From Candidatus Roizmanbacteria bacterium CG02_land_8_20_14_3_00_36_15 (GTDB taxonomy: Bacteria > Patescibacteriota > Microgenomatia > UBA1406 > GWC2-37-13), in assembly GCA_002780795.1 (NCBI GenBank), contig PEUF01000041.1, forward strand, positions 3,826-67,825: 64,000 nucleotides of DNA. The letters run 5' to 3'. Numbering within the stretch: the first letter of the stretch is position 1; every line of letters starts with the position of its first letter. This document shows positions 3,201 to 61,246 of the stretch, piece by piece. The notes below the pieces were generated by a model. That model was not told where the DNA came from and did no database searches. It saw nothing but the letters and a program-made list of their open reading frames with translations. A program made the position numbers and the translations under genes.

Positions 3201-4571
3201 TTAATCATGAACCCAAATTTCGAGATTCAGTTCACGAAAGGATTTTTCTTCTTGCAAATGAAAATGGTAATCGACCAATGTCTTTTTATAATCATATCCA
3301 TAAATTTCGGCTGAGTAGGGAATAATGATGATTTTTTGCGGTAAACTCGTTGAACTCTCCAAACTCGTCAACTCGTTAACCTTTAAATCCTTTCTATAAT
3401 ATAACAAAGGGTCTGATGACGATTTAATCATATAGACTGGTTGGTCTTTCGGTAGAGTTTGCGCCAAACTTTTCCAGTCCTCTCGATGAAACTTAGCGCC
3501 AGTAAGATATAAACACGAAAAAACAAAAAAACCAATCAAGACAATCTTTCTAAACATTGGATTGTCCTTTAACGAAAAAGAAAGTAATAAACACATGATC
3601 GGAATCAGATAGAGGAATCTAAAATATTGAAGTAGGGGAGTGACGAAGGAAACGGCAAAACCCAAAACTAATGGAAAAATAAATAAATAAATAAATAAAT
3701 TAACGGCATTGAGATTTGATATGTGGATTTGAGATATAACAAATATGCTCCATCCACCCGCCATTAAGTAGTATAGCCACTTTGGATAAAAGTCGATTCT
3801 GCCGATCGAAAACTTAATCGGTATCAATAATAAATTTTTAATATTCGCTTTCCCCAAAACCAACGACCAGTTGGTCACATTGGATAAAGATATTTTGGCA
3901 TTAATAAGTTGTTGATAAAGTAGGGGAGAGATTGCTAAAAAATAAACAAATACTGCAAATAAACAAATAAAGAAATTTCTAAATTGCTTTTTATATAAAA
4001 AATAAAGTAAGAAAGCTGTAATCAAAAATATCGATCCATAAAAAGTCATCAACGATAAAAATACAAATAAATTAAACAAGATTTGAGATTTAAGATTTGG
4101 ATTTACGTTTTGACTTTTGCCTTTTGACTTTTGAATTCGCAACATTTTTTCGAAATAATACAAGGCTACGGTGAGAAAAAATGTTGTCGCCATGTACATT
4201 CTTGCTTCCTGACTGTAATAAACAATCAGCGGATTGAAAAGAAAAAAAACCGCCGCAAACAAGCCGGCTCTATAGCCATACATCCATCTAACCATTTTAT
4301 ATATAACGTATCCTGTAGCCAAACTAAATAAAACCGACGGCATCCTAAGTGAAATTTCCGAGTAGCCGAAAAAATTAGTCCACAGTTTCATAAACCAGTA
4401 GTAGAGCGGGGGATGAAAATCGTTCAGTAAGAATCTACTAACAATCTGTGTCAATTTGTATTCTTGAACCACTCGCGCCGTCGTCGCCTCATCCAGCCAG
4501 AGAGATTGGTTAAGTCCAATAAGACGAACTAAAAATGCTAAAGTAAATATAAATATTAATTTCTTCTTCAT
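3201..4571 (-). CDS. Integral membrane glycosyltransferase, ArnT/PMT-like paralog
   Basis: First loop contains SLWLDEATT, an acidic DE motif of the ArnT/PMT family. Polytopic. Carries an (AAAT)n run and heptamer arrays in frame. Confidence 0.55.
   Translation of the reverse strand: MKKKLIFIFTLAFLVRLIGLNQSLWLDEATTARVVQEYKLTQIVSRFLLNDFHPPLYYWFMKLWTNFFGYSEISLRMPSVLFSLATGYVIYKMVRWMYGYRAGLFAAVFFLFNPLIVYYSQEARMYMATTFFLTVALYYFEKMLRIQKSKGKSQNVNPNLKSQILFNLFVFLSLMTFYGSIFLITAFLLYFLYKKQFRNFFICLFAVFVYFLAISPLLYQQLINAKISLSNVTNWSLVLGKANIKNLLLIPIKFSIGRIDFYPKWLYYLMAGGWSIFVISQIHISNLNAVNLFIYLFIFPLVLGFAVSFVTPLLQYFRFLYLIPIMCLLLSFSLKDNPMFRKIVLIGFFVFSCLYLTGAKFHREDWKSLAQTLPKDQPVYMIKSSSDPLLYYRKDLKVNELTSLESSTSLPQKIIIIPYSAEIYGYDYKKTLVDYHFHLQEEKSFRELNLEIWVHD
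3711..3738. repeat. Heptamer array (GAGATTT family) inside an ArnT-like ORF
   Basis: gagattt|gatatgt|ggatttg|agatata. Shares the 15-mer ATGTGGATTTGAGAT with 46636-46650. (AAAT)5 lies adjacent at 3679-3700. Confidence 0.7.
4081..4137. repeat. Composite heptamer array inside an ArnT-like ORF
   Basis: atttgag|atttaag|atttgga|tttacgt|tttgact|tttgcct|tttgact|tttgaat. Confidence 0.75.
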
Positions 4572-8401: not shown

Positions 8402-9310
8402 CTAGTTTTTCTTCTTCTGAAAAAAAACTATCAACTCTCCAATCATTCCCGTCATCACCACCTGTATGCCGACGATGACAAGAAGCATTCCTAAAAATAG
8501 TATTGGCCGACGATATAAGAGAACGTGATAGAAAAGCCGTTCTACCGCCAAATACATAAGGATAACGTTTCCCATAAAAAATAAAATTGTTCCAAATATG
8601 CCGAAAAAATGAAGCGGTTTTTCCGAAAATTGGTAAAGGAAATAAGCGGTTAAAGTATCAAGAATTCCGATGAAGAGCTTTGATTTACCAAACTTAGATT
8701 TACCAAACTGCCTGGGATGGTTTTTTACCTCAATCTCAACCACCTTGTATCCTTTGTAAAAAGCATATAGAGGAAAAAAACGAAAGTTATTTCCATAGAA
8801 GGTAAAGTCCTGTAATACTTCTTTTTTAAACGCCTTAAAACCACAGTTAATATCGGTAAAAGGTGAACGAAAAAATATTTTTAAAAAAAGTTTGGCTATG
8901 AATGAATAGGTTTTAATAATAAAATTATCCTGTCTGTCTTGTCTTATTCCGTTGACAAGATCGTAACCTTGACCTATTTTTTCTAGTAATCGAAGAAGAT
9001 CATTCGGCTCGTCTTGAAGGTCAGCATCCATAAAAATAATTACCTCGCCGGATGAATTTTCTATGCCGGTCTGCAAAGCCTTTCCTTTCCCAAACCTCTT
9101 CCGGTGGCTAATTAGTTTAATTTGGTAATTTTGAGTTTTGAACTGCAATTTTGAATTTTGAATTTTGAATTTTGAACTATCATCGCTTCCATCATCAACC
9201 AATATAATCTCTGCTTCTTTTTTTATCTTTTCTAAAACTTCAATTAAATGTTTAATTAAAGTAGGCAGGCTTTCCGCCTCGTTGTAAAAGGGAATTATTA
9301 TAGATAACAT
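8402..9310 (-). CDS. Family 2 glycosyltransferase (polyprenyl-phosphate sugar synthase type, two C-terminal TM helices)
   Basis: SIIIPFYNE, VDDGSDD and MDADLQDEP motifs plus C-terminal TM helices, as in GtrB/ArnC/DPM-synthase-like enzymes. Confidence 0.8.
   Translation of the reverse strand: MLSIIIPFYNEAESLPTLIKHLIEVLEKIKKEAEIILVDDGSDDSSKFKIQNSKLQFKTQNYQIKLISHRKRFGKGKALQTGIENSSGEVIIFMDADLQDEPNDLLRLLEKIGQGYDLVNGIRQDRQDNFIIKTYSFIAKLFLKIFFRSPFTDINCGFKAFKKEVLQDFTFYGNNFRFFPLYAFYKGYKVVEIEVKNHPRQFGKSKFGKSKLFIGILDTLTAYFLYQFSEKPLHFFGIFGTILFFMGNVILMYLAVERLFYHVLLYRRPILFLGMLLVIVGIQVVMTGMIGELIVFFQKKKN
9127..9177. repeat. Heptamer array AATTTTG x6-7 inside a GT2 ORF
   Basis: aattttg|agttttg|aactgc|aattttg|aattttg|aattttg|aattttg. 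Confidence 0.85.
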
Positions 9311-9315
9311 GGTTT

Positions 9316-9369
9316 AACTTTATGAACTTTATAAACTTTATAAACTTTATGGACTTTATGACTTTATAA
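9316..9369. repeat. Intergenic nonamer array AACTTTATR x6
   Basis: aactttatg|aactttata|aactttata|aactttatg|gactttatg|actttataa. Confidence 0.85.
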
Positions 9370-25653: not shown

Positions 25654-26976
25654 ATGATCAGTTGTGACTTTGCACCAAATGAGGCTTGGGATGACGCCTG
25701 GATCGCTTTTAAGCTAATCCTTCAACCTTGGAAATGGAAAAAAGGTAAAGAGCTTGATTTAATTAAAGAAATATTATTGCAGAAAATTTATGGATCCTGT
25801 CAGAAGTTTCCTTCCCGCCAGTGCTCGACTTGCGTTGAAAGACCCCAAGATCTCTGCGCTGTCGGGATCCCTCCTTCTTCTGCCACCCATAAATTTTCTG
25901 CAAACTTGTTTCTATCTGGCAGATCAGCACTCAACTATCTACTAAAATCACTCAACTTACCGAAAGAATCCGAGATAATTGTCCAGGGTTTCACCTGCGA
26001 GGCCGTCGTCCTACCAATATTGGCCAATAATTTAAGGCCTGTTTATGTTGATATTGAGACTGAGTCATTTTCCTTTGATCCTATAGATTTAGAAAAAAAG
26101 ATAACTAGCAAAACCCGGACAATCATCCTTCAGCATAGTTTTGGCATAACACCAAAGCACCGAGAAATAATCATTTCCATTGCCAAACAACATCGTTTAC
26201 TGCTAATCGAGGATATAGCACATGGATTTCAAAGTCAAAAGTTAAAAGTTAAAAGTCAAAAGTCTATTTATTTAATGTCTTTTGGCCGGTCCAAAGCCAT
26301 ATCGTCGGTCTTCGGTGGAGCGATTGTCACTAATAATAAATCAATTGCCAGAAAATTAGAATTAATTGAAAAAAATCTACCAAAACCCAATCTTTTTTTT
26401 ATCTTCAGAACTTTAATTTATAAACCGTTATCTATGGTTATTAGATTAACTTACGATTTTTTACTGGGGAAAATTATCCATAAATTAATAAATTTGTTTG
26501 CGATTTTTCCTCCAGAAATCACCAAAAAAGAAAAAAGGGGAGAGTATAGTAGTTTTTTCGATAAAGCATATCCCAATGCTCTAGCGATTCTTTTACTCCA
26601 TCAGTTAAATAAAGTTGATCAAGTTAACAAACAAAGGGCTAAAATATGCCAAGTGTATCAAAGGAAAATCTCAAATCTTAAATCTAAAATCTCAAATTTA
26701 GCATTAAGTCGTTATCCTTTGTTAGTCAAAAATCGGTCACCAATAATAACAAAAGCGCAGAAACAAAATATTTTTCTAGGTAACTGGTACAACCAACCAG
26801 TTGGACCAGCTAGCCTTAATCTCGCTAAAGTACAGTATCAACTTGGCAGTTGCCCAGTAGCGGAGGAAGTTTGTCAACATATTATTAATCTACCAACTAA
26901 TATAACTATAGTAAGCGCTAAACGAATAATCACTTTGATTTTAAATAAGAAAAGTGTAAAGTGTGCGGATTTTTAA
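25654..26976 (+). CDS. DegT/DnrJ/EryC1/StrS family aminotransferase-like protein
   Basis: IEDIAHG and SFGRSKAISSVFGGAIV (PLP-lysine region). Contains one GC-rich insert and two heptamer arrays in frame. Confidence 0.65.
   Translation: MISCDFAPNEAWDDAWIAFKLILQPWKWKKGKELDLIKEILLQKIYGSCQKFPSRQCSTCVERPQDLCAVGIPPSSATHKFSANLFLSGRSALNYLLKSLNLPKESEIIVQGFTCEAVVLPILANNLRPVYVDIETESFSFDPIDLEKKITSKTRTIILQHSFGITPKHREIIISIAKQHRLLLIEDIAHGFQSQKLKVKSQKSIYLMSFGRSKAISSVFGGAIVTNNKSIARKLELIEKNLPKPNLFFIFRTLIYKPLSMVIRLTYDFLLGKIIHKLINLFAIFPPEITKKEKRGEYSSFFDKAYPNALAILLLHQLNKVDQVNKQRAKICQVYQRKISNLKSKISNLALSRYPLLVKNRSPIITKAQKQNIFLGNWYNQPVGPASLNLAKVQYQLGSCPVAEEVCQHIINLPTNITIVSAKRIITLILNKKSVKCADF
25792..25870. repeat. 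GC-rich segment bounded by GGATCC-containing imperfect inverted repeats, in frame in the DegT-like ORF
   Basis: GGATCCTGTCAG ... CTGTCGGGATCC (10/12 complementary). Encodes GSCQKFPSRQCSTCVERPQDLCAVGIP. Confidence 0.5.
26231..26265. repeat. Heptamer array AAAGTYA x5 inside the DegT-like ORF
   Basis: aaagtca|aaagtta|aaagtta|aaagtca|aaagtct. Confidence 0.85.
26666..26700. repeat. Heptamer array AAATCTN x5 inside the DegT-like ORF
   Basis: aaatctc|aaatctt|aaatcta|aaatctc|aaattta. Confidence 0.85.
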
Positions 26977-27119: not shown

Positions 27120-28292
27120 ATGATCATTAAAGAAATAGAAGATTATAAAACCTGGACTAAGTTTTTTAATCAAAACGGTTCGCCGTCGTTTTTGCAATCC
27201 TGGGGGTGGGGAGAGATACAAAAAAAACTGGGTTATAATATCTTGCGTCTAGGCCTTTATGATAAAGATAAACTTACTGCCATCACTTTGGTTGTTAAGA
27301 TTAGAGCTAAAAGAGGCAATTTTTTATTTATTCCAAATGGGCCAATAACACAATCTCAAATCTCAAATCTCAAAACTCAAAACTACATCTCAAATCTAAA
27401 ATCTTATTTCATCAAGCTGGCAAGGAAAGAAGATTTTTCTTTCATAAGGATTGCGCCTATTCTTGAAAACACTCCTGAAAATCAAAAAATATTTAAACAT
27501 TTAAACTTTAAAACCGCTCCAATCTATATGCATGCGGAAACGGTGTGGCAACTACCGTTAACCGCCGCGGTTGAGGAGCGGAGCGGGAAAACCGCGGCGG
27601 TTTATTGCTTGACCGATAATCAGTTGCTTTCAAACATGCGCAAAACAACTCGTTACTTAATCCGCAAAGCGATCCGCGACGGTGTTATTATCGAAAAACG
27701 AACCGATGAAAAAGCGGTTGAGGATTTTTACCAAATTTATCAAGAAACTGCAAAAAGAGAATATTTTGTCCCGTTCTCAAAAAAATATATTAAAGAGGAG
27801 TTTAAGGCGTTTAACAAAACCGGAAACGCAATATTTTTGTTTGGAAAAATAAATAAACAGGCGACGGGTGTTGAGAAGAAAGGGTTCCTGACAGCGCGTA
27901 GCGATTTTTCCAGCCCGCCGCTGGTCGCGAGCACTGACGGGAATGAATTCGAAACAGGCCCCGTCGCCTCAGCACTTATTCTTTTTACTAAATCTACTGC
28001 ATTTTACCATCAAGGCGCTTCAATTCATACCAAGGTTCCGGCTACTTATCTTCTCCAGTGGGAAGCCATAAAAGAAGCCAAAAAACGTGGTTGCTCATTA
28101 TATAATTTTTGGGGAATATATGATGAGAACTCGGGCAGGATGCCCAAAGCCTGGCAAGGGTTAACTCTTTTTAAAACCGGTTTTGGCGGTAAAAAGATTT
28201 GTTATTTGCCCACCCAAGATTATATAATCTCTTCAAGATATTTTTTAACAGTTATCTGGGAAAAACTATTAGCTTGGAAAAGAGTAATATAA
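27120..28292 (+). CDS. FemAB family peptidoglycan interpeptide-bridge peptidyltransferase
   Basis: FLQSWGWGEIQKKLGY N-terminal signature and FYHQGAS in the C-terminal half. Carries three apparent in-frame inserts. Confidence 0.7.
   Translation: MIIKEIEDYKTWTKFFNQNGSPSFLQSWGWGEIQKKLGYNILRLGLYDKDKLTAITLVVKIRAKRGNFLFIPNGPITQSQISNLKTQNYISNLKSYFIKLARKEDFSFIRIAPILENTPENQKIFKHLNFKTAPIYMHAETVWQLPLTAAVEERSGKTAAVYCLTDNQLLSNMRKTTRYLIRKAIRDGVIIEKRTDEKAVEDFYQIYQETAKREYFVPFSKKYIKEEFKAFNKTGNAIFLFGKINKQATGVEKKGFLTARSDFSSPPLVASTDGNEFETGPVASALILFTKSTAFYHQGASIHTKVPATYLLQWEAIKEAKKRGCSLYNFWGIYDENSGRMPKAWQGLTLFKTGFGGKKICYLPTQDYIISSRYFLTVIWEKLLAWKRVI
27352..27403. repeat. Heptamer array AATCTCA x7 inside the FemAB ORF
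   Basis: aatctca|aatctca|aatctca|aaactca|aaactac|atctcaa|atctaaa. Confidence 0.85.
27560..27602. repeat. Perfect 13-bp GC-rich inverted repeat with a 17-nt loop, in frame in the FemAB ORF
   Basis: AACCGCCGCGGTT-gaggagcggagcgggaa-AACCGCGGCGGTT. Encodes LTAAVEERSGKTAAV. Confidence 0.8.
27859..27969. repeat. GC-rich ~110-bp segment bounded by a 10-bp inverted repeat, in frame in the FemAB ORF
   Basis: AGGCGACGGG (27859-27868) and CCCGTCGCCT (27960-27969). AAACAGGC precedes both arms. Confidence 0.7.
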
Positions 28293-41002: not shown

Positions 41003-41572
41003 ATGGCTCAAAAAACTTTAAAAGTCGGATTTGATCTCGATGGGGTCATTCTTTATAACCCATTCCGCATTGTCAGACCATTTATTGCTATCTTTAAAAA
41101 AATTGTTTTAGGTTTCGATCATCGCCCCCTGAAGTTCTATTACCCGAAAACTAGATTAGAAAGGTATTTTTGGCGTGTGGCTCACAAATCCAGTTTCTTT
41201 ATTGGTTATGGTTTCTGGGAAATACTTACTCTCATTAAAAAAAGAAGGATCAAAGCTTATATCATCACCGCTCGATTTAGTTTTTTAGAGAATGATCTCA
41301 ATCGAAAAATAAAACAGCTTGGTATAAAGAAATATTTTTCTGCCATCTACTTTAATAGAAAAGACGAACAACCCCATCTATTTAAAGAAAAAATGATAAA
41401 GAAATTAGGTCTTGATGTTTATGTCGAAGACAATTGGGATATAGTAAGATATCTAAACTTAAAAGTCAAAAGTCAAAAGTCAAAAGTTTATTGGATATAT
41501 AATATCCTTGATAGAAAGATTAAATACCAATATAAATTTTCATCTTTAAAAAAAGTGGCAAAAAAATTATGA
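41003..41572 (+). CDS. HAD-like hydrolase
   Basis: Motif I VGFDLDGVI and a late VEDNWD motif. Heptamer array in frame (KVKSQKSKV). Confidence 0.5.
   Translation: MAQKTLKVGFDLDGVILYNPFRIVRPFIAIFKKIVLGFDHRPLKFYYPKTRLERYFWRVAHKSSFFIGYGFWEILTLIKKRRIKAYIITARFSFLENDLNRKIKQLGIKKYFSAIYFNRKDEQPHLFKEKMIKKLGLDVYVEDNWDIVRYLNLKVKSQKSKVYWIYNILDRKIKYQYKFSSLKKVAKKL
41461..41488. repeat. Heptamer array AAAAGTC x4 inside the HAD-like ORF
   Basis: aaaagtc|aaaagtc|aaaagtc|aaaagtt. Confidence 0.9.
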
Positions 41573-42562: not shown

Positions 42563-43720
42563 ATGGAAATTTTATTTTTCTCCCCTTATTTTTACCCTTA
42601 TATTTCTGGTTTGACTACTTATCCGTACAAAATTTTAACTCATCTCTCTAAAAAACATAAAATAACTGTTCTTACCTTTCCCTATCAAAAAGAATTAACA
42701 ATTAACAATCAACAATTAACAATTAAATATCTTCCCTACTTTTTTCGTTTTTCCAAAGGTTTCATTTCCCCCCCATCAATATTTTATTTTTATTATTATG
42801 CAAAAAAATCCGATTTAATAATTTTAAACCAGCCGAATTTTGAGGGTCTTTTTTTAGCAATAATAGGAAAAATTCTTCATAAAAAAATTGTTTCAATTTT
42901 GCACTGTCAGGTATTCTTAGATAGTGGTTTTTTTAACCAAATCATAAACTCATTCCTAAACCTATCAGTCTTTATTCAACTTTGGCTCTCCAATAATATT
43001 ATTGCTTATACTGAAGACTACTTTAAAAGTTTAAAAATTAGCCGTTTCTTTCTTAAAAAAACCAGGTTTGTTTTACCACCGATTGAATTTTTAAAAATAA
43101 ATCAGAAAAAACTCAAAGAGTTCGATAGATTAAAAACTGATAAAATTTGGCTCGGCTATGCCGGGCGGATTGCCTCCGAAAAAGGATTGGAATATCTTGT
43201 ACAATCGATTAATCAACTATATGCCAAAAACAAGGTTGAGTTAGTTTTTGCTGGCCCTTATGGAAAAGACGTTTCTGGCGAAGATAAATATTATAAAAGA
43301 ATTATCAACCTTCTCGAAACCAATGTCGTCAAGCACCATTTCTTTGGAAATTTATCGGATGGCGATTTGAGCGCTTTTTATAAAGCTATTGATCTCTTAG
43401 TATTACCTTCAATCAATCAAACTGAAGCTTTTGGCATGGTTCAGGCTGAAGCGATGCTTACCGGCACTCCTGTCATCGCTTCTAATTTACCGGGAGTTAG
43501 AGTTCCAATCCGATTAACAAAAATGGGGGAAATAGTTAAGCCAAAAAATCCACAACAAATAAGCAAGGCAATTATAAAAATTTTAAAAAATAAAAACAAA
43601 TTCTCTAATAATTTTTTAATTAATAAGGCAAAAAAAATCTTTGATATTAATAAAACCTATCAATTTTATGATAATTTAGTGTGTCAGAGCCACCCGAATT
43701 TGACCGAAGCGGTCAAATAA
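42563..43720 (+). CDS. Family 4 (GT-B) glycosyltransferase
   Basis: The C-terminal EAFGMVQAEAMLTGTPVIASNLPG motif is typical of GT4. Confidence 0.8.
   Translation: MEILFFSPYFYPYISGLTTYPYKILTHLSKKHKITVLTFPYQKELTINNQQLTIKYLPYFFRFSKGFISPPSIFYFYYYAKKSDLIILNQPNFEGLFLAIIGKILHKKIVSILHCQVFLDSGFFNQIINSFLNLSVFIQLWLSNNIIAYTEDYFKSLKISRFFLKKTRFVLPPIEFLKINQKKLKEFDRLKTDKIWLGYAGRIASEKGLEYLVQSINQLYAKNKVELVFAGPYGKDVSGEDKYYKRIINLLETNVVKHHFFGNLSDGDLSAFYKAIDLLVLPSINQTEAFGMVQAEAMLTGTPVIASNLPGVRVPIRLTKMGEIVKPKNPQQISKAIIKILKNKNKFSNNFLINKAKKIFDINKTYQFYDNLVCQSHPNLTEAVK
42693..42727. repeat. Heptamer array AATTAAC x5 inside the GT4 ORF
   Basis: aattaac|aattaac|aatcaac|aattaac|aattaaa. Confidence 0.9.
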
Positions 43721-43742
43721 AGATTGGTATAACAATCTAAAT
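43684..43742 (+). repeat. Solo copy of the hairpin element that flanks the Y1 transposase gene
   Basis: GACCGAAGCGGTC + AA + 7 nt + TTGGTATAACAATCTAAA. Compare 59760-59800 and 60561-60595. Confidence 0.7.
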
Positions 43743-44516
43743 ATGGCTAAAAATGTTGATTTTCTTATAAAGAAATACTTGGAAAACCGACCGATGTTTT
43801 TGGCGCTGATTAGAACTTCGGAGACGCTATTATTTCTAAAACATTCAAATTTAATTAAGAAACCCGTCCTCGATTTCGGTTGCGGCGATGGTTTTTTTAC
43901 CGAAACTGTGTTCAATAAGAAGAATATTAACGTCGGCTTAGATATTCATGATAGCCGAATAAGAATCGCAGAAAAAGAAAAAATCTATAAACAAGTTGCC
44001 GTTTATGACGAGTTAAGAATTCCGTTTCCAGATAATTATTTTACAACCATAATCTCAAACTGCGTTCTTGAACATATTCCTAATTTAGACTTAGCACTGG
44101 CGGAAATTTATCGAGTTTTAAAGCCTGGCGGCTATTTCTTAACAACGCTTATGACAAATAAATGGAACGACTACTTATTTGGAAAAAAATTATTGGGCAA
44201 ATGGTATGTCGAATATATGAAGAAAAAACAAGCCCACTATAATCTATTTTCTTATCAGCAATGGTTTGACCTATTTGAACGATCTAAATTCAAAATTATA
44301 AAAAGTATTGGCTATTTAAATAAAAAAAATTCTCTGTTTATTGACTTAGCTCATTACCTCTCTCTCCCCTCTTTAATAACCTATAAGCTCTTCAATAACT
44401 GGCAACTGTTTCCAAAATTAACTAATTTATTATGGCAACCATATATAAGCAAAAATATTAACATTGACGTTAAAGTTAATGAATCCAGCGCTTTATTTTT
44501 TATTTTAAAAAAATGA
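43743..44516 (+). CDS. Class I SAM-dependent methyltransferase
   Basis: VLDFGCGDGFF motif I and downstream LKPGGYF. Confidence 0.75.
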   Translation: MAKNVDFLIKKYLENRPMFLALIRTSETLLFLKHSNLIKKPVLDFGCGDGFFTETVFNKKNINVGLDIHDSRIRIAEKEKIYKQVAVYDELRIPFPDNYFTTIISNCVLEHIPNLDLALAEIYRVLKPGGYFLTTLMTNKWNDYLFGKKLLGKWYVEYMKKKQAHYNLFSYQQWFDLFERSKFKIIKSIGYLNKKNSLFIDLAHYLSLPSLITYKLFNNWQLFPKLTNLLWQPYISKNINIDVKVNESSALFFILKK

Positions 44517-56187: not shown

Positions 56188-57625
<1,438 letters not shown>

Positions 57626-59070
57626 ATTTATTCACTATCTCTTCTGCATAACCGGTATATTTTTCCGGTAATAAACCAATCAATTTTTCTTCGTCTCCTT
57701 CTTCTAGTTTAAAGTTTTTGATAAACTTTTTTATACTAGTCAGATCGACATCTTTTCCTCGAAAAAATTTCTTTGTTTTATCATAGGCGTCTTTATAATC
57801 TTTTGTCCTAAGAAAATTCTGAATCGCTTCGGAAATCACCTCCGGATGTCTGGTTAAATCATATTTTATATTGTCATAATCAGCCTCAATCCGATTTAAT
57901 CCCTCATTAATACTTTGATATGATAAGAGACAGTAGCCAAAAGCAATACCAAATGAACGACGAACCGTAGAGTCTGAAAGATCCCTCTGGAGCCTTGAAT
58001 ATGAAAGTTTACGGCAATAAAACTCAAGTAGACTATTGGCAATCCCGAATCCTCCTTCGGCTCCTTCGAAATAAATTGGATTAATTTTATGAGGTAGCGC
58101 GGTGGAACCAACTTCAGTCTTAATTAATTTTTGTTTAAAGTATCCCAAGCTAATGTAATACCAAAAATCGATCGACAATCCCAGAAGAATGTTGTTAATG
58201 CACAATAATGAATTAAAAATTCTTATTAAACTATCGTAAGGCTCTATTTGCGTGGTTACCAAATCCTGTTCTAAACCTAGAGAGGCAATAAACTCTTCGC
58301 TAAACTTTAGCCAATTGATTTTAGGAAAAACAAATTTATGAGCATTAAGATTGCCACTGTTGCCGGTCAGTTTTCCCTTAAACAGCAAATTTTTCAGTAT
58401 CTTAATTTCCTCTTTCAATCTTTGACGGTAAACAAGAAATTCTTTGCCTACAGTCGTTGGCGCGGCCGGTTGACCATGAGTACGAGCCAACATAGGAATA
58501 TTTTTATATTTTCTTGATTTTTCTTTTAGGTTCTCTTCGATTTTTTCCAATTCAGGAATAATGATTTTCTTCAAACTCCCCTTAATCATTAAGACGTAAG
58601 CTAAATTATTGATGTCGTCCGAAGTTAGACTAAAATGAATCATCTCGACGACATCCTTTAGCGATGTCTTCTTTAAACTATCTCTGATAAACTCTTCCAC
58701 CGCTTTAAGATCATGGTTGGTTTTTTTTTCAATCTCTCTGATTTTTTCGTAATCTTTAAGGCTAAATGCTTTGATTTTTCGAAAAATTGTAGTCAGTTCT
58801 CTGTTAGTCAATCTTCTTATCACTTTGTATTGAGAAAGTTTTTTTAGGTAGCTTAATTCGATCAATAAACGAAATTTATCCAGGGCTTTTTCGGAAAAGA
58901 AATAAGAGAGTTCTCTGATCTTGTGTTTATTTCTTCCGTCTAGCGGGGTAATTGCTTCGCCGATGTGATAAAGGAAGGAAAGTTTTTTATTCATGAAACG
59001 ATATATTTTAATCAAAGTTGATCGAATTAGTCAAACACAAAATGTTATAATTTATTAAATTCTTTTGCTT

Positions 59071-59155
59071 GGGCGAGTGCTGAAACTGGTATACAGACTA
59101 GTCTCAAAAACTAGTGGTCGCAACGGCCGTGAGGGTTCGACTCCCTCCTCGCCCA
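59071..59155 (+). tRNA. tRNA-Leu (anticodon CAA), class II
   Basis: Acceptor GGGCGAG/CTCGCCC, anticodon arm CTAGT-CTCAAAA-ACTAG, variable arm TGGTCGCAACGGCCGT, T arm GAGGG-TTCGACT-CCCTC. Confidence 0.9.
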
Positions 59156-59191
59156 CATTGGTAATTACTCCAATAACCGTTTCCAACTGAA

Positions 59192-59737
59192 ATGATATTA
59201 ATCATCTCACTGCTAGTAATAACATTGATCATAATTATTCTTTTTTCTTTTCCCCAACTTTCTCCTGTTCCCTACTTTCCTACTAATAAAAAAGATCTGC
59301 CTCTGATCGTCAAAGCCCTTGGTTTGAAGAATAATCAAACGGTTTTAGATTTAGGCGCCGGCGATGGCATCGTCATTTTTGAAGCGGCAAAAAAAGCTTA
59401 TAAACGAAAGTTAAACACTAAGTTTGTGGCCGTGGAAATTAACCCAGTTTTAATTTTAATAATGAATATCCGCTACCTTTTCCACCCAAACAGAAAAAAT
59501 ATAAAAATCGTCTTTGGCGATATTTTTAAAATGAATTACAAAAAACTTTTAACTTCTAACTTTTCACTTTTAACTTTCTATCTTTATATTTCTCCCTGGT
59601 TTCTTGAAAGAGTAATTCCAAATTTAAAATTTAAAATTTCAAATTTTTCCATCGTTTCTTACATGTACCCGGTAAAAAGCCTAAAAAGCAAAGAAAAAAT
59701 TATTTGTGGAAAAAATAAGATTTTTGTATATAATTAA
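59192..59737 (+). CDS. Small class I SAM-dependent methyltransferase with an N-terminal TM helix
   Basis: VLDLGAGDGIVIFEAA motif I. Two heptamer arrays in frame. Confidence 0.55.
   Translation: MILIISLLVITLIIIILFSFPQLSPVPYFPTNKKDLPLIVKALGLKNNQTVLDLGAGDGIVIFEAAKKAYKRKLNTKFVAVEINPVLILIMNIRYLFHPNRKNIKIVFGDIFKMNYKKLLTSNFSLLTFYLYISPWFLERVIPNLKFKISNFSIVSYMYPVKSLKSKEKIICGKNKIFVYN
59545..59579. repeat. Heptamer array ACTTTTA x5 inside the small MTase ORF
   Basis: actttta|acttcta|acttttc|actttta|actttct. Confidence 0.85.
59614..59648. repeat. Heptamer array AATTTAA x5 inside the small MTase ORF
   Basis: aattcca|aatttaa|aatttaa|aatttca|aattttt. Confidence 0.85.
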
Positions 59738-59744
59738 AGCCTCA

Positions 59745-60595
59745 CAGCTATTCTTTCCCGACCGCTTCGGTCAAAAACGTGTTGGCATAACAATCTAAAA
59801 TTACTCCATAATGAGCTTTTTTATTAATTTTAATTTTCTCTGATAATCAATGTTATTTTCACAAAAATTTTTATATGAATCGGTATCGTTTATCGAAATT
59901 TCTGTTAAATAATTTTTTAGAATATTATTATTCAAATAATATTTATAAGAGGAAAAAATCCAATCTTCTGGTTTTTCTACTAAATAATTTGTAGTAGGAT
60001 TTATGTTAATATAACGAGAAATATGAAGAAGTTGTTCATTAGATTTTATTAGTATGAATTTAAAATTAGACTGCCATAATGGCCCTTTTCTGTTAAATTT
60101 TATGTTAAAAAATCTGGAATAACTGTTTTCTATATCATTAATATATTTTGAAAGGCAATTTTCTTTTAAAATCTCAATTAATAAATGATAATGGTCAGGC
60201 ATAATACAATAAGCTAAAAATTTAATTAATCTGTCGTCTTTAACTGTTAGTAATTCTGGTGAATAATTTTTATTAGTTTTTAAATAATTTCCTAAATTAG
60301 ATTGAACTAGCAGGTTATTGTAATAATCTAACACTTGAATAAATCTTTGTGAATTATTTAGGTCTTTAAATATTGGATAGTTGGCAATGCTTTTATTAAA
60401 CACGTGATATATTTTACCTTCGGGAAATTTTTTCATAGATTTAGTAATAAATTATTAACTTTAAAAAATTTATAGTTCATATAAATTCATTTGTCTATAG
60501 ACTATAGTCTACAAAAAGGTATTTTTGGCTTATTTTGGAGCGCTAAACCAACCTAATACCGACCGCTTCGGTCAAGAGAAGGTTGGTATAACAAG
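59745..60595 (-). mobile_element. IS200/IS605-like or RAYT-type unit: a Y1 HUH transposase gene bracketed by two copies of a hairpin element
   Basis: GACCGCTTCGGTC + AA + 7 nt + TTGG[C/T]ATAACAA at 59760-59795 and 60561-60595, both in the same orientation, immediately outside the ORF. No terminal inverted repeats, as expected for this family. Confidence 0.55.
59801..60436 (-). CDS. Y1 (HUH) transposase, IS200-like / REP-associated tyrosine transposase family
   Basis: HUH motif MPDHYHLLI. Catalytic Tyr region ISRYININPTTNYLVEKPEDWIFSSYKYY matches the Y..NP...LV..PedY.wSS pattern. Confidence 0.75.
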   Translation of the reverse strand: MKKFPEGKIYHVFNKSIANYPIFKDLNNSQRFIQVLDYYNNLLVQSNLGNYLKTNKNYSPELLTVKDDRLIKFLAYCIMPDHYHLLIEILKENCLSKYINDIENSYSRFFNIKFNRKGPLWQSNFKFILIKSNEQLLHISRYININPTTNYLVEKPEDWIFSSYKYYLNNNILKNYLTEISINDTDSYKNFCENNIDYQRKLKLIKKLIME

Positions 60596-61246
60596 TTAGC
60601 TGGAAATGATTTTAAGGATTTCGGAAGGTTTGGAGACGATAAAATCAGCGCCGTATTTTTTTAGAATATGTGCTTTGTTTAATCCCCAAGAAACGGCGAT
60701 TATCTTCATCTTGATTTTTTTACACGCCTCAATATCACGAATCTCGTCACCTACATAAACAGTTTTTTCTTCTTTAAAATTGTTTTTTTTTAATAGATTA
60801 TCAATAGCAGCCGCTTTTCCTAAAATATGGCTACCGCAGTCAATAAAATCAAAAAAGTCTATTTGGTTAACCAGTAGAAATTTTTTGACATTTTTTTCCA
60901 AATTAGAAGATAAAATCATCAAATTAATACCTCTTTTTTTCAAATCTTTAAGGAGTTTTTTAATGCCAGGAAATATTTTTATCGTCTCTATTTCCCCATA
61001 TAGTTCTTCCTGCATTTTTCTGATGATTCCCATAATCAAAGGCAGCTTAAACCAAGATAATTTCATACCACCCAAGGTCATCAGTTCTCGATAACTTTTT
61101 GTTCTTATTTCTTTAATAATTTGTTTTTCACTAAGATTATTTATTTTTAGAATTCTGGCTATTTTTATAACGTTCTTAAAACTAAAAGGCAACGTATCGG
61201 CGATTGTACCGTCAAAATCGAAGATAACCATTTTTATTTTTTGCAT
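60596..61246 (-). CDS. HAD superfamily hydrolase (phosphoglycolate phosphatase-like)
   Basis: MVIFDFDGTIADT motif I, LSSN motif II, VGDEIRDIEA motif IV. Start at MQKIKMVIF. Confidence 0.75.
   Translation of the reverse strand: MQKIKMVIFDFDGTIADTLPFSFKNVIKIARILKINNLSEKQIIKEIRTKSYRELMTLGGMKLSWFKLPLIMGIIRKMQEELYGEIETIKIFPGIKKLLKDLKKRGINLMILSSNLEKNVKKFLLVNQIDFFDFIDCGSHILGKAAAIDNLLKKNNFKEEKTVYVGDEIRDIEACKKIKMKIIAVSWGLNKAHILKKYGADFIVSKPSEILKIISS

Follow-up and report, generated by a model that had tools for sequence, protein, structure and literature searches.

The repetitive extragenic palindromes (REPs) and the REP-associated tyrosine transposases (RAYTs) are the best example of a transposase turned into a vertically inherited host gene that keeps a small population of non-autonomous repeats, and their benefit to the host is debated. 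In E. coli, the RAYT protein TnpA_REP (RayT/YafM; Quentin subclass 2.2; structure 4ER8) is a Y1 nuclease of the HUH type with a Y-x3-NP motif, a WQ/WE motif and a DWxFS tail, and its single-copy gene is flanked by cognate hairpins in the so-called REPtron, with more copies of these hairpins elsewhere in the genome. In Pseudomonas, the REPIN-RAYT systems (Bertels & Rainey; groups 2 and 3) have a vertical, housekeeping-like RAYT with co-evolving palindromic repeats and long hairpins, and the insertion sequences (ISs) of the IS200/IS605 type (IS200, IS608 and ISDra2; subclass 1.1) have the same catalytic fold, in a unit of ~0.8 kb with one Y1 gene and subterminal hairpins in the same orientation. 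A likeness to each of these systems is found in the locus described here, at 59745-60595 of a window of 64,000 nucleotides (the whole stretch of DNA analysed) from Candidatus Roizmanbacteria bacterium CG02_land_8_20_14_3_00_36_15 (contig PEUF01000041.1, positions 3,826 to 67,825), an ultra-small bacterium of the Microgenomates within the Candidate Phyla Radiation (CPR, or Patescibacteria). The published surveys worked on complete genomes predating the CPR expansion and we found none covering CPR/Patescibacteria; the literature searched also holds no paper linking RAYTs or REPINs with these bacteria, in line with the original prediction, made from the letters of the window alone, which was aware of no characterised case in CPR-like genomes. 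We consider it likely that this is a REPtron-like locus, that is, a domesticated, vertically inherited RAYT-class Y1 nuclease gene between two cognate hairpins of the same orientation, and the best explanation of the sequence comparisons is that the gene and its two hairpins (~835 bp) are inherited as one unit across Microgenomates/Roizmanbacteria-type CPR bacteria.

The gene (59801-60436, minus strand) encodes a protein of 211 aa. Its open reading frame (ORF) had been predicted to carry an HUH motif and a tyrosine region, and the catalytic residues of both proved to be intact: MPDHYHLLI holds D81-H82-Y83-H84, with H82 and H84 as the HUH pair, and RYININP...PEDWIFSSY holds the catalytic Y142, the metal ligand N146, W159 and S162-S163. 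Across 52 aligned homologues H11, D81, H82, H84, W121, R141, Y142, N146, W159, S162 and S163 are invariant, the consensus motifs of the family being DHYH / WQ / YIHLNP / DWxFSSY. The segment Y142-I-N-I-N146-P147 is the Y-x3-NP signature of class 2 (TnpA_REP), as opposed to the Y-x3-Q of IS200 (Quentin 2018). The sole Pfam match of the protein is Y1_Tnp (E 6.7e-12). In NCBIfam, REP_Tyr_transpos gives 66.8 bits, below the equivalog cut-off of 80, so that the protein is a divergent relative and no equivalog, and transpos_IS200 gives 15.7 bits against a cut-off of 55; the first model matches all 52 family members (best E 1e-22), the second only four, weakly. The top sequence match in the PDB is E. 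coli TnpA_REP bound to a REP hairpin (4ER8, E 3e-5), and the HMMER alignment equates H82/H84 with H59/H61, Y142 with Y115 and N146 with N119, the two last being the catalytic tyrosine and a metal ligand of 4ER8 (Messing 2012). With the AlphaFold (AF2) model of the protein (pLDDT 93.5), Foldseek also placed 4ER8_A first (E 1.5e-7, TM 0.69), with the ISDra2 (5e-5) and IS608 transposases behind, the identity in the structural alignment with 4ER8 being only ~16%. Because of the Y-x3-NP motif, the REP_Tyr_transpos score far above that of IS200, and the first place of 4ER8 in both sequence and fold, the protein is, on sequence and modelled structure, of the RAYT class and not of the IS200 class.

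The protein is ~45 aa longer than E. coli TnpA_REP, and its C-terminal ~45 residues form three helices in the AlphaFold model. This tail matches no Pfam family, HTH and DnaA_C included, even at E<=10, and a C-terminal HTH/DnaA_C domain of the subclass 2.1 type was dropped for that reason. The placement among subclasses was made by motif comparison with the published Quentin table only, in which the consensus of subclass 2.1/TIRYT (NH[YF]H / Y[IV]HLNP / SS) comes nearest to the motifs of the family (xHYH, YIHLNP and the SS tail). Subclass 2.1, however, has a DnaA_C/HTH-like C-terminal domain and no reported nearby hairpins, whereas here no such domain was detected and the hairpins are always present. 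By repeat type, the nearest are subclasses 2.6 and 3, which also have atypical, non-GTAG flanking structures and few genomic copies, and these are known from Bacteroidetes, Planctomycetes and others, not from the CPR.

The original prediction had offered the choice between a REP/RAYT and an IS200/IS605 arrangement, and it is the first that gains support, from the motif, the profiles, the fold, the single locus and the cognate hairpins. Were this an IS200/IS605-type insertion sequence, the two hairpins would mark its left and right ends in subterminal position and transposition would move the whole ~835-bp unit; the size of the unit is indeed IS200-like, it occurs in at least six different gene contexts across the family, and two divergent Y1 paralogues occur in one metagenome-assembled genome (MAG). 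Besides the Y-x3-NP in place of Y-x3-Q and an IS200 profile score far under its cut-off, however, the distribution of the gene speaks against transposition, and the high copy number, near-identical copies and patchy horizontal distribution of IS200/IS605 elements are not seen here. At least 24 contigs, drawn from many samples, encode the identical protein, and its gene has the same surroundings in every one of them (NCBI assembly GCA_002779965.1 includes one of these contigs); the ~900 homologues of the protein, 211-216 aa long, belong, where named, to Roizmanbacteria, Microgenomates or Patescibacteria. A search for additional transposase copies gave one tblastn match per locus, with one Y1 copy in each of eleven further loci (contig-level data), no second Y1 copy in the window or in the contigs bearing solo hairpins, no near-identical second copy in any locus, and no tnpB gene.

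The gene has also kept its place and its pace. In the locus whose Y1 protein is 82% identical to that of the window (L030 in our numbering of loci), a HAD hydrolase gene still lies on one side and a methyltransferase gene on the other, and at greater divergence synteny is retained in part, in GatCAB or MptA/PMT neighbourhoods. The identity of the Y1 protein follows or exceeds that of the adjacent genes in five species pairs: 82% against 51-65% for the window and L030, 67% against 66-76% for the window and L052, 77% against 74% for L031 and L052, 63% against 60% for L048 and L050, and 90% against 90% for L036 and L044. The same host-gene-like pattern of divergence sets RAYTs apart from insertion sequences (Bertels et al. 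2017). From this divergence in step with host genes, together with the single locus, the Y1 gene therefore looks domesticated and not like part of an active IS, and we hold transposition of the whole unit as an IS200/IS605 element to be highly improbable.

The second component of the locus is the hairpin module. The sequence GACCGCTTCGGTC occurs exactly at 59760-59772 and 60561-60573, both on the plus strand, and in a form with the complementary loop at 43702-43714; these three matches compare with 0.35 expected (two mismatches allowed), and none of 100 shuffles gave three. A tail, TTGGYATAACAA, is found exactly in the 64 kb only at 43724-43735, 59782-59793 and 60583-60594, in every case 9 nt past its hairpin, and a repeat search put the three copies in one family (D6). 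The two copies that flank the gene are direct repeats, with the tail on the plus strand in both and the Y1 gene on the minus strand. All the features of the original prediction were found at, or within 1-2 nt of, the positions it gave, including the loop-inverted third copy ~16 kb away; its description of the module as lying immediately outside both ends stands as to the two sides, but not as to the distances, given that the downstream hairpin starts 28 nt past the stop codon and the upstream one lies 124 nt before the ATG, outside the gene's own promoter-like block. By BLAST against solo copies on other contigs, the repeated unit measures ~42-48 nt (60553-60598, 59753-59799 and 43700-43741), and module copies 1 and 3 have an extra TCTAAA in common.

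The downstream element, labelled RE (59753-59799, minus strand), has its core hairpin at 59760-59772 and an AT-rich arm at 59782-59800, which on the plus strand reads TTGG-CATAAC followed by 9 nt up to the complement of the Y1 stop codon. It shares a direct repeat of 37 nt with the upstream element and scores 30.7 bits with the covariance model, and its arm on the far side of the hairpin is decayed. The upstream element, labelled LE (60532-60598, minus strand), is a bipartite hairpin, with the core at 60561-60573 and an outer stem ACCAACCT/AGGTTGGT in which 60547-60554 pairs with 60580-60587. Its outward arm TTGGTATAACAAG (60583-60595) stops 1 nt short of the stop codon of the HAD hydrolase gene, and its inward arm (60532-60546) repeats the tail in degenerate form. 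The DNA fold of this element has -10.6 kcal/mol (z -2.9), the covariance model gives it 35.1 bits, and the BLAST match to solo copies spans 60548-60598. Rfam gave nothing at gathering thresholds across the window and nothing at E<=1 in 59650-60700, and a known RNA family was dropped as an explanation.

The link between hairpins and gene was examined in the relatives, the comparison covering 12 loci, namely the window and eleven further species-level loci that were fetched. In all 12, the Y1 gene lies between two copies of one hairpin in the same orientation, with a direct repeat of 16-55 nt, at fixed positions (the upstream core at about -114 to -100 from the ATG, the downstream one at about +24 to +45 from the stop codon). 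The sequence of the hairpin is species-specific, as in GACCGAAGCGGTC, AACCGACTCGGTT, CGACCGCGTAGGTCG, TACAACCG...CGGTTGTA, GACCCCTGGGGTC and AACCTACGAGGTT, on a shared core RACCN-NNN-NGGTY; within each genome the left hairpin equals the right one, and between genomes the changes are compensatory. Over nine stem pairs in 28 elements, 89% of the cells are paired vs. 74% in shuffles, and 44 cells are changed on both sides vs. 16, with neither value reached in any of 500 shuffles; in control registers slid by 1-3 columns, pairing was at most 49%. The outermost core pair is A-U in 13 elements and G-C in 12, and a covariance model built without the L052 sequences still recovers the three L052 copies. 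Many of the elements fold as longer bipartite hairpins, and in L031 the downstream one is a doublet of ~66 nt with full symmetry. The hairpins accompany the Y1 gene while the neighbouring genes differ between species, and since left and right remain identical in each genome despite this, the hairpins belong to the Y1 unit and evolve together with it.

Two observations on single relatives belong here. L031 and L044, both from the MAG GCA_040960375.1, hold on two large contigs two Y1 paralogues that are 65.6% identical, each with its own hairpin type (AACCGACTCGGTT vs. TACAACCG...CGGTTGTA), and this is either one genome with two enzyme/hairpin pairs or a mixed bin. In L046 (9600-11100), the order is a promoter block, a small ORF of the XRE-type helix-turn-helix (HTH) kind, a hairpin, Y1, a hairpin, the same promoter block and an HTH_3 gene; Y1 thus has a copy of the HTH gene with its promoter on either side, and the upstream hairpin is only ~36 nt from the ATG.

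The concerted changes also bear on another explanation, in which the hairpins are ordinary gene-boundary signals of the neighbours, a terminator followed by the next promoter, with no functional link to Y1. Read in the orientation of the gene, the elements begin 1-8 nt past stop codons (of the HAD and Y1 genes and of ORFs in L027 and L029), the tail matches the extended -10 geometry of this genome, and other junctions with a hairpin and a promoter, of unrelated sequence, lie upstream of the ORFs starting at 41003 (plus strand) and 14194 (minus strand). However, concerted evolution would not be expected of independent terminators: left and right hairpins are the same in each of the 12 genomes with differing neighbours, both change together between genomes, and their stems covary. 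The unit of 42-48 nt is also repeated at unrelated loci, coding sequences included. The sites were left unflagged by the terminator scan and have no T/U-run after the hairpin on either strand, which speaks against intrinsic terminators; flanks that proved to be ordinary terminators were an outcome that the original prediction had named as refuting it. Signals of the neighbours functionally unlinked to Y1 are thus very unlikely, and an expression role co-opted on top of the REP role is plausible.

Such a role is suggested by the genome in which the elements lie. No Shine-Dalgarno (SD)-like motif (GGAG/GAGG/AGGAG at -18 to -3) precedes any of the 57 window ORFs that reach 150 aa, and TATAAT-like hexamers cluster 6-11 nt before the start codons, those extended by TG at 6 and 9 nt, so the source genome is, by its sequence, apparently leaderless. 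No description of a leaderless organisation in Microgenomates was found in the literature searched, and Tsurumaki 2022 reports loss of the anti-SD only from a Parcubacteria subgroup. At the solo copy of the window, the tail TTGG-TATAAC with 9 nt before the ATG at 43743 fits the extended -10 geometry of this genome exactly, and the L052 orthologue retains the promoter-like tail as TTGGCATAACAAGCTAAAT-ATG. The downstream arm of Y1 is antisense to the gene, and a -10-like hexamer with 6-9-nt spacing was seen there by visual inspection in 12 of 12 species. In form and spacing, then, the module tail TTGG(T/C)ATAAC looks like an extended -10 promoter, and its position suggests that the elements have been co-opted as gene-boundary signals. 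A sigma-70 promoter with its -35 in the hairpin was also considered; TTGACC is present only in copy 3, ~20 nt from TATAAC, and an extended -10 that lacks a -35 is the better fit. The Correia elements of Neisseria are likewise small palindromic repeats, with ends able to provide promoter hexamers to adjacent genes; they are bounded by terminal inverted repeats and TA duplications and are not linked to a Y1 enzyme, and in the elements described here the promoter role is only predicted. Just upstream of the tRNA-Leu(CAA) gene (59071-59156), a match of 65% to the module (GATCGAATTAGTCAAACACAAAATGTTATAAT...) lies at 59020-59059, and this is either a decayed element acting as the tRNA promoter or merely a tail-like extended -10 promoter.

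Between the upstream hairpin and the gene lies a separate conserved block (60469-60515, minus strand), which was predicted from sequence conservation in at least 10 loci and is most simply read as the promoter and operator of the Y1 gene. Within it are TTGTAG (60509-60514), the 14-bp palindrome TAGACTATAGTCTA (60498-60511), a -35-like TAGACA (60492-60497), a 17-nt spacer and a -10-like TATAAA (60469-60474). The palindrome had been noticed earlier, and its membership in a block conserved across the family had been missed. The pattern in the family is TTGTAG-nn-TATA-nn...T(A/T)GAC, 17 nt, TATAAA, at least 10 loci keep the -35/17 nt/-10 spacing unchanged, and the nnTATAnn part is kept palindromic by paired changes (ACTATAGT, GGTTATAACC and GATTATAATC).

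Away from the gene, the window holds a solo copy of the element at 43689-43742 (plus strand), with an extended hairpin at 43698-43718, the core at 43702-43714 and the loop AAG; it scores 36.9 bits with the covariance model and its fold has a z of -5.1. The upstream glycosyltransferase gene takes its last ~9 codons and its stop codon from this hairpin; homologues of the enzyme stop 3-6 aa past YKFYxxL, and the protein of the window continues for 12 aa. The TTGG-TATAAC of the element (43724-43733) is followed after 9 nt by the ATG of a methyltransferase gene. From the stop-codon position and the geometry of the arm, this solo copy would therefore provide one gene with its stop codon and the following gene with its promoter. 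Its loop is the exact complement of the flanking loop of the window, and in L052 a solo copy lies at the orthologous glycosyltransferase/methyltransferase junction with the loop AGT, the same as the flanking loop of L052. The position is old enough to be shared by species whose proteins are 66% identical, yet the hairpin matches the current version of each genome, a hint in the sequences that the solo copies are still being homogenised. In L050 (16481-16519), a solo copy identical to the flanking hairpins of that locus forms an in-frame part of a variable loop in a family-2 glycosyltransferase (KPFLTYEVKNG), and the L048 orthologue (3630-4400) lacks it, with unrelated sequence of nearly equal length in its place.

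These solo copies also help to weigh the explanation in which the hairpins are only cis-regulatory sites for autoregulation, the enzyme has ceased to move DNA and the solo copies survive as relics. In its favour, gene and hairpins form a strictly conserved unit with fixed spacing, the number of solo copies is very low, the copy at the glycosyltransferase/methyltransferase junction is old, and the antisense -10-like hexamer of every downstream element could drive an antisense RNA. Nevertheless, the HUH, Tyr and Asn residues are invariant across the family, and pure DNA binding would not need them; the L050 copy equals its flanking copies and is missing in the L048 orthologue; and in the window and in L052 each solo loop agrees with the flanking loops of the genome it lies in, which suggests continuing exchange. 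We regard purely regulatory hairpins with an enzyme inactive in DNA movement as unlikely.

Further copies were sought more widely. A scan of metagenomes gave nine matches, of which four or five look real (on L024, L026, L027 and L029, and perhaps L025, where the match sits within a 565-aa ORF on a contig of 41% GC), and those on L021, L022, L023 and L028 were discarded as chance (GC-rich or coding context). The solo copies on the AT-rich contigs L024, L026, L027 and L029 are intergenic and represent three loci, L026 and L029 being orthologous; these contigs and the window have only the 42-48-nt unit in common. A scan of one genome per species gave 13 matches, a number close to chance expectation and none of them in a related or CPR genome, and was set aside. 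Given that the window's own copies were missing from both scans, its source genome evidently lies outside the scanned data. With the covariance model, no further firm copies appeared in the 283 kb searched; the extra matches were a borderline one in L048 (12297-12335, E 0.07) and a weak one in the window (27547-27585, 15.7 bits, E 0.5). L026 (2132) and L029 (1072) are 84-96% identical on the tail side of the solo element and unalignable on the other side, the homology starting ~4 nt before the hairpin, a break that could stem either from a rearrangement or from an indel-rich boundary where the element ends.

A probable related doublet lies at 27560-27602 (plus strand), where the cores AACCGCCGCGGTT and AACCGCGGCGGTT face each other as reverse complements at a distance of 17 nt. 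It is contained in a 45-nt, GC-rich, in-frame insertion in an ORF of the FemAB family (27120-28292, plus strand), encoding AAVEERSGKTAAVYC; this insert of 15 aa is missing from most FemAB homologues, and a few hold other inserts, of up to ~60 aa, in the same loop. The paired core pattern RACCN-NNN-NGGTY occurs five times in the window vs. 0.33 expected. The core of the doublet differs from the one that flanks Y1, and its form resembles a REPIN doublet. Tentatively, we count it by its sequence as a member of the element family, and it may be the element of a second RAYT paralogue or an older copy.

We suggest keeping in mind several points that weigh against a REPtron-like locus. The score of the protein with REP_Tyr_transpos lies under the equivalog cut-off, as given above, and all 12 loci come from homologues of at least 58% identity. 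The canonical 5' GT[AG]G foot of REPs, whose GTAG form in E. coli is recognised base-specifically (Messing 2012), is not at the hairpin in the 28 aligned elements; among these, the stem is bordered on each side by 4-5 nt of variable sequence, rich in T or in A, and GTAG is confined to the separate promoter block and some of the distal arms. The flanks of the E. coli REPtron are inverted pairs of REPs, whereas here they are direct repeats that share loop and arm asymmetry, and the ends of IS200/IS605 elements likewise carry hairpins as direct repeats on one strand. Both collection-wide scans gave few copies and missed the three of the window itself, and in the ~270 kb of the window and the Y1-bearing loci the covariance model found three firm solo copies and one borderline, a density of ~1 per 20-80 kb, which is far below that of the classical REP families. 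E. coli has hundreds of copies with a GTAG foot and this system few solo copies without one; Pseudomonas has tens to hundreds of REPINs per genome, with flanking 16-mers occurring 57-140 times, and here there is a handful of elements, which are shorter than REPINs and have one promoter-like arm. Finally, given the stop-codon positions and this arm, the conservation could partly reflect ordinary gene-expression signals. The resemblance of the tail to an extended -10, the missing GTAG foot, the small number of elements and the direct, IS200-like orientation had all been missed in the original prediction.

If the locus works as its analogues do, namely E. coli TnpA_REP with its REPs and the IS608 and ISDra2 transposases, the protein would bind the RACCN-NNN-NGGTY hairpin in single-stranded DNA, for example at the replication fork, would cut and rejoin close by in the AT-rich arm, and would thereby sometimes copy the element of 45-65 nt or homogenise the existing copies. 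This action on the hairpins is inferred from those systems. As a side role at the level of the host, an element placed right after a stop codon could serve as a 3'-end or terminator-like hairpin, and its outward arm, TTGG(T/C)ATAAC plus 9 nt, could serve as an extended -10 promoter for leaderless genes. A bolder proposal, which we find possible although doubtful, is that the RAYT keeps a small population of hairpin cassettes as gene-boundary modules, each with a 3'-end hairpin and an outward leaderless promoter, placing or homogenising them between genes and even in frame in protein loops, with the copy at the 3' end of Y1 firing a self-limiting antisense transcript. If true, this would be a RAYT/REP system selected for transcription wiring in a streamlined, SD-free genome.

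Two side observations touch other parts of these sequences. AT-rich repeats of short period (AACTTTTA, AAAGTC and AATTTAAA units) fill many intergenic spacers of the window, forming long imperfect inverted repeats (at 57505-57631 and, for example, at 9305-9368, 26231-26268 and 59544-59645), and have no relation to the hairpin module. In L030 (2049-4664), precomputed Pfam matches show a DnaB helicase gene with an intein that holds a LAGLIDADG endonuclease domain.

In summary, a known system of domesticated transposases is likely extended here to a new lineage, in an atypical form with no GTAG foot, direct orientation, low copy number, a promoter-like arm and a longer protein. It would be a minimal system, made up of a pair of home copies plus a handful of solo ones in a genome of ~1 Mb with almost no intergenic space, and in which the co-evolution of enzyme and hairpin is clear across many species. 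The small protein and the hairpin cores are good subjects for in vitro work on specificity. With its IS200-like direct ends, the unit may stand midway between IS200-type elements and REPtrons, and the combination of stop codon, hairpin and leaderless promoter makes the predicted host function of the repeats concrete and testable, which is relevant both to the evolution of REP/RAYT systems and to the organisation of CPR genomes.

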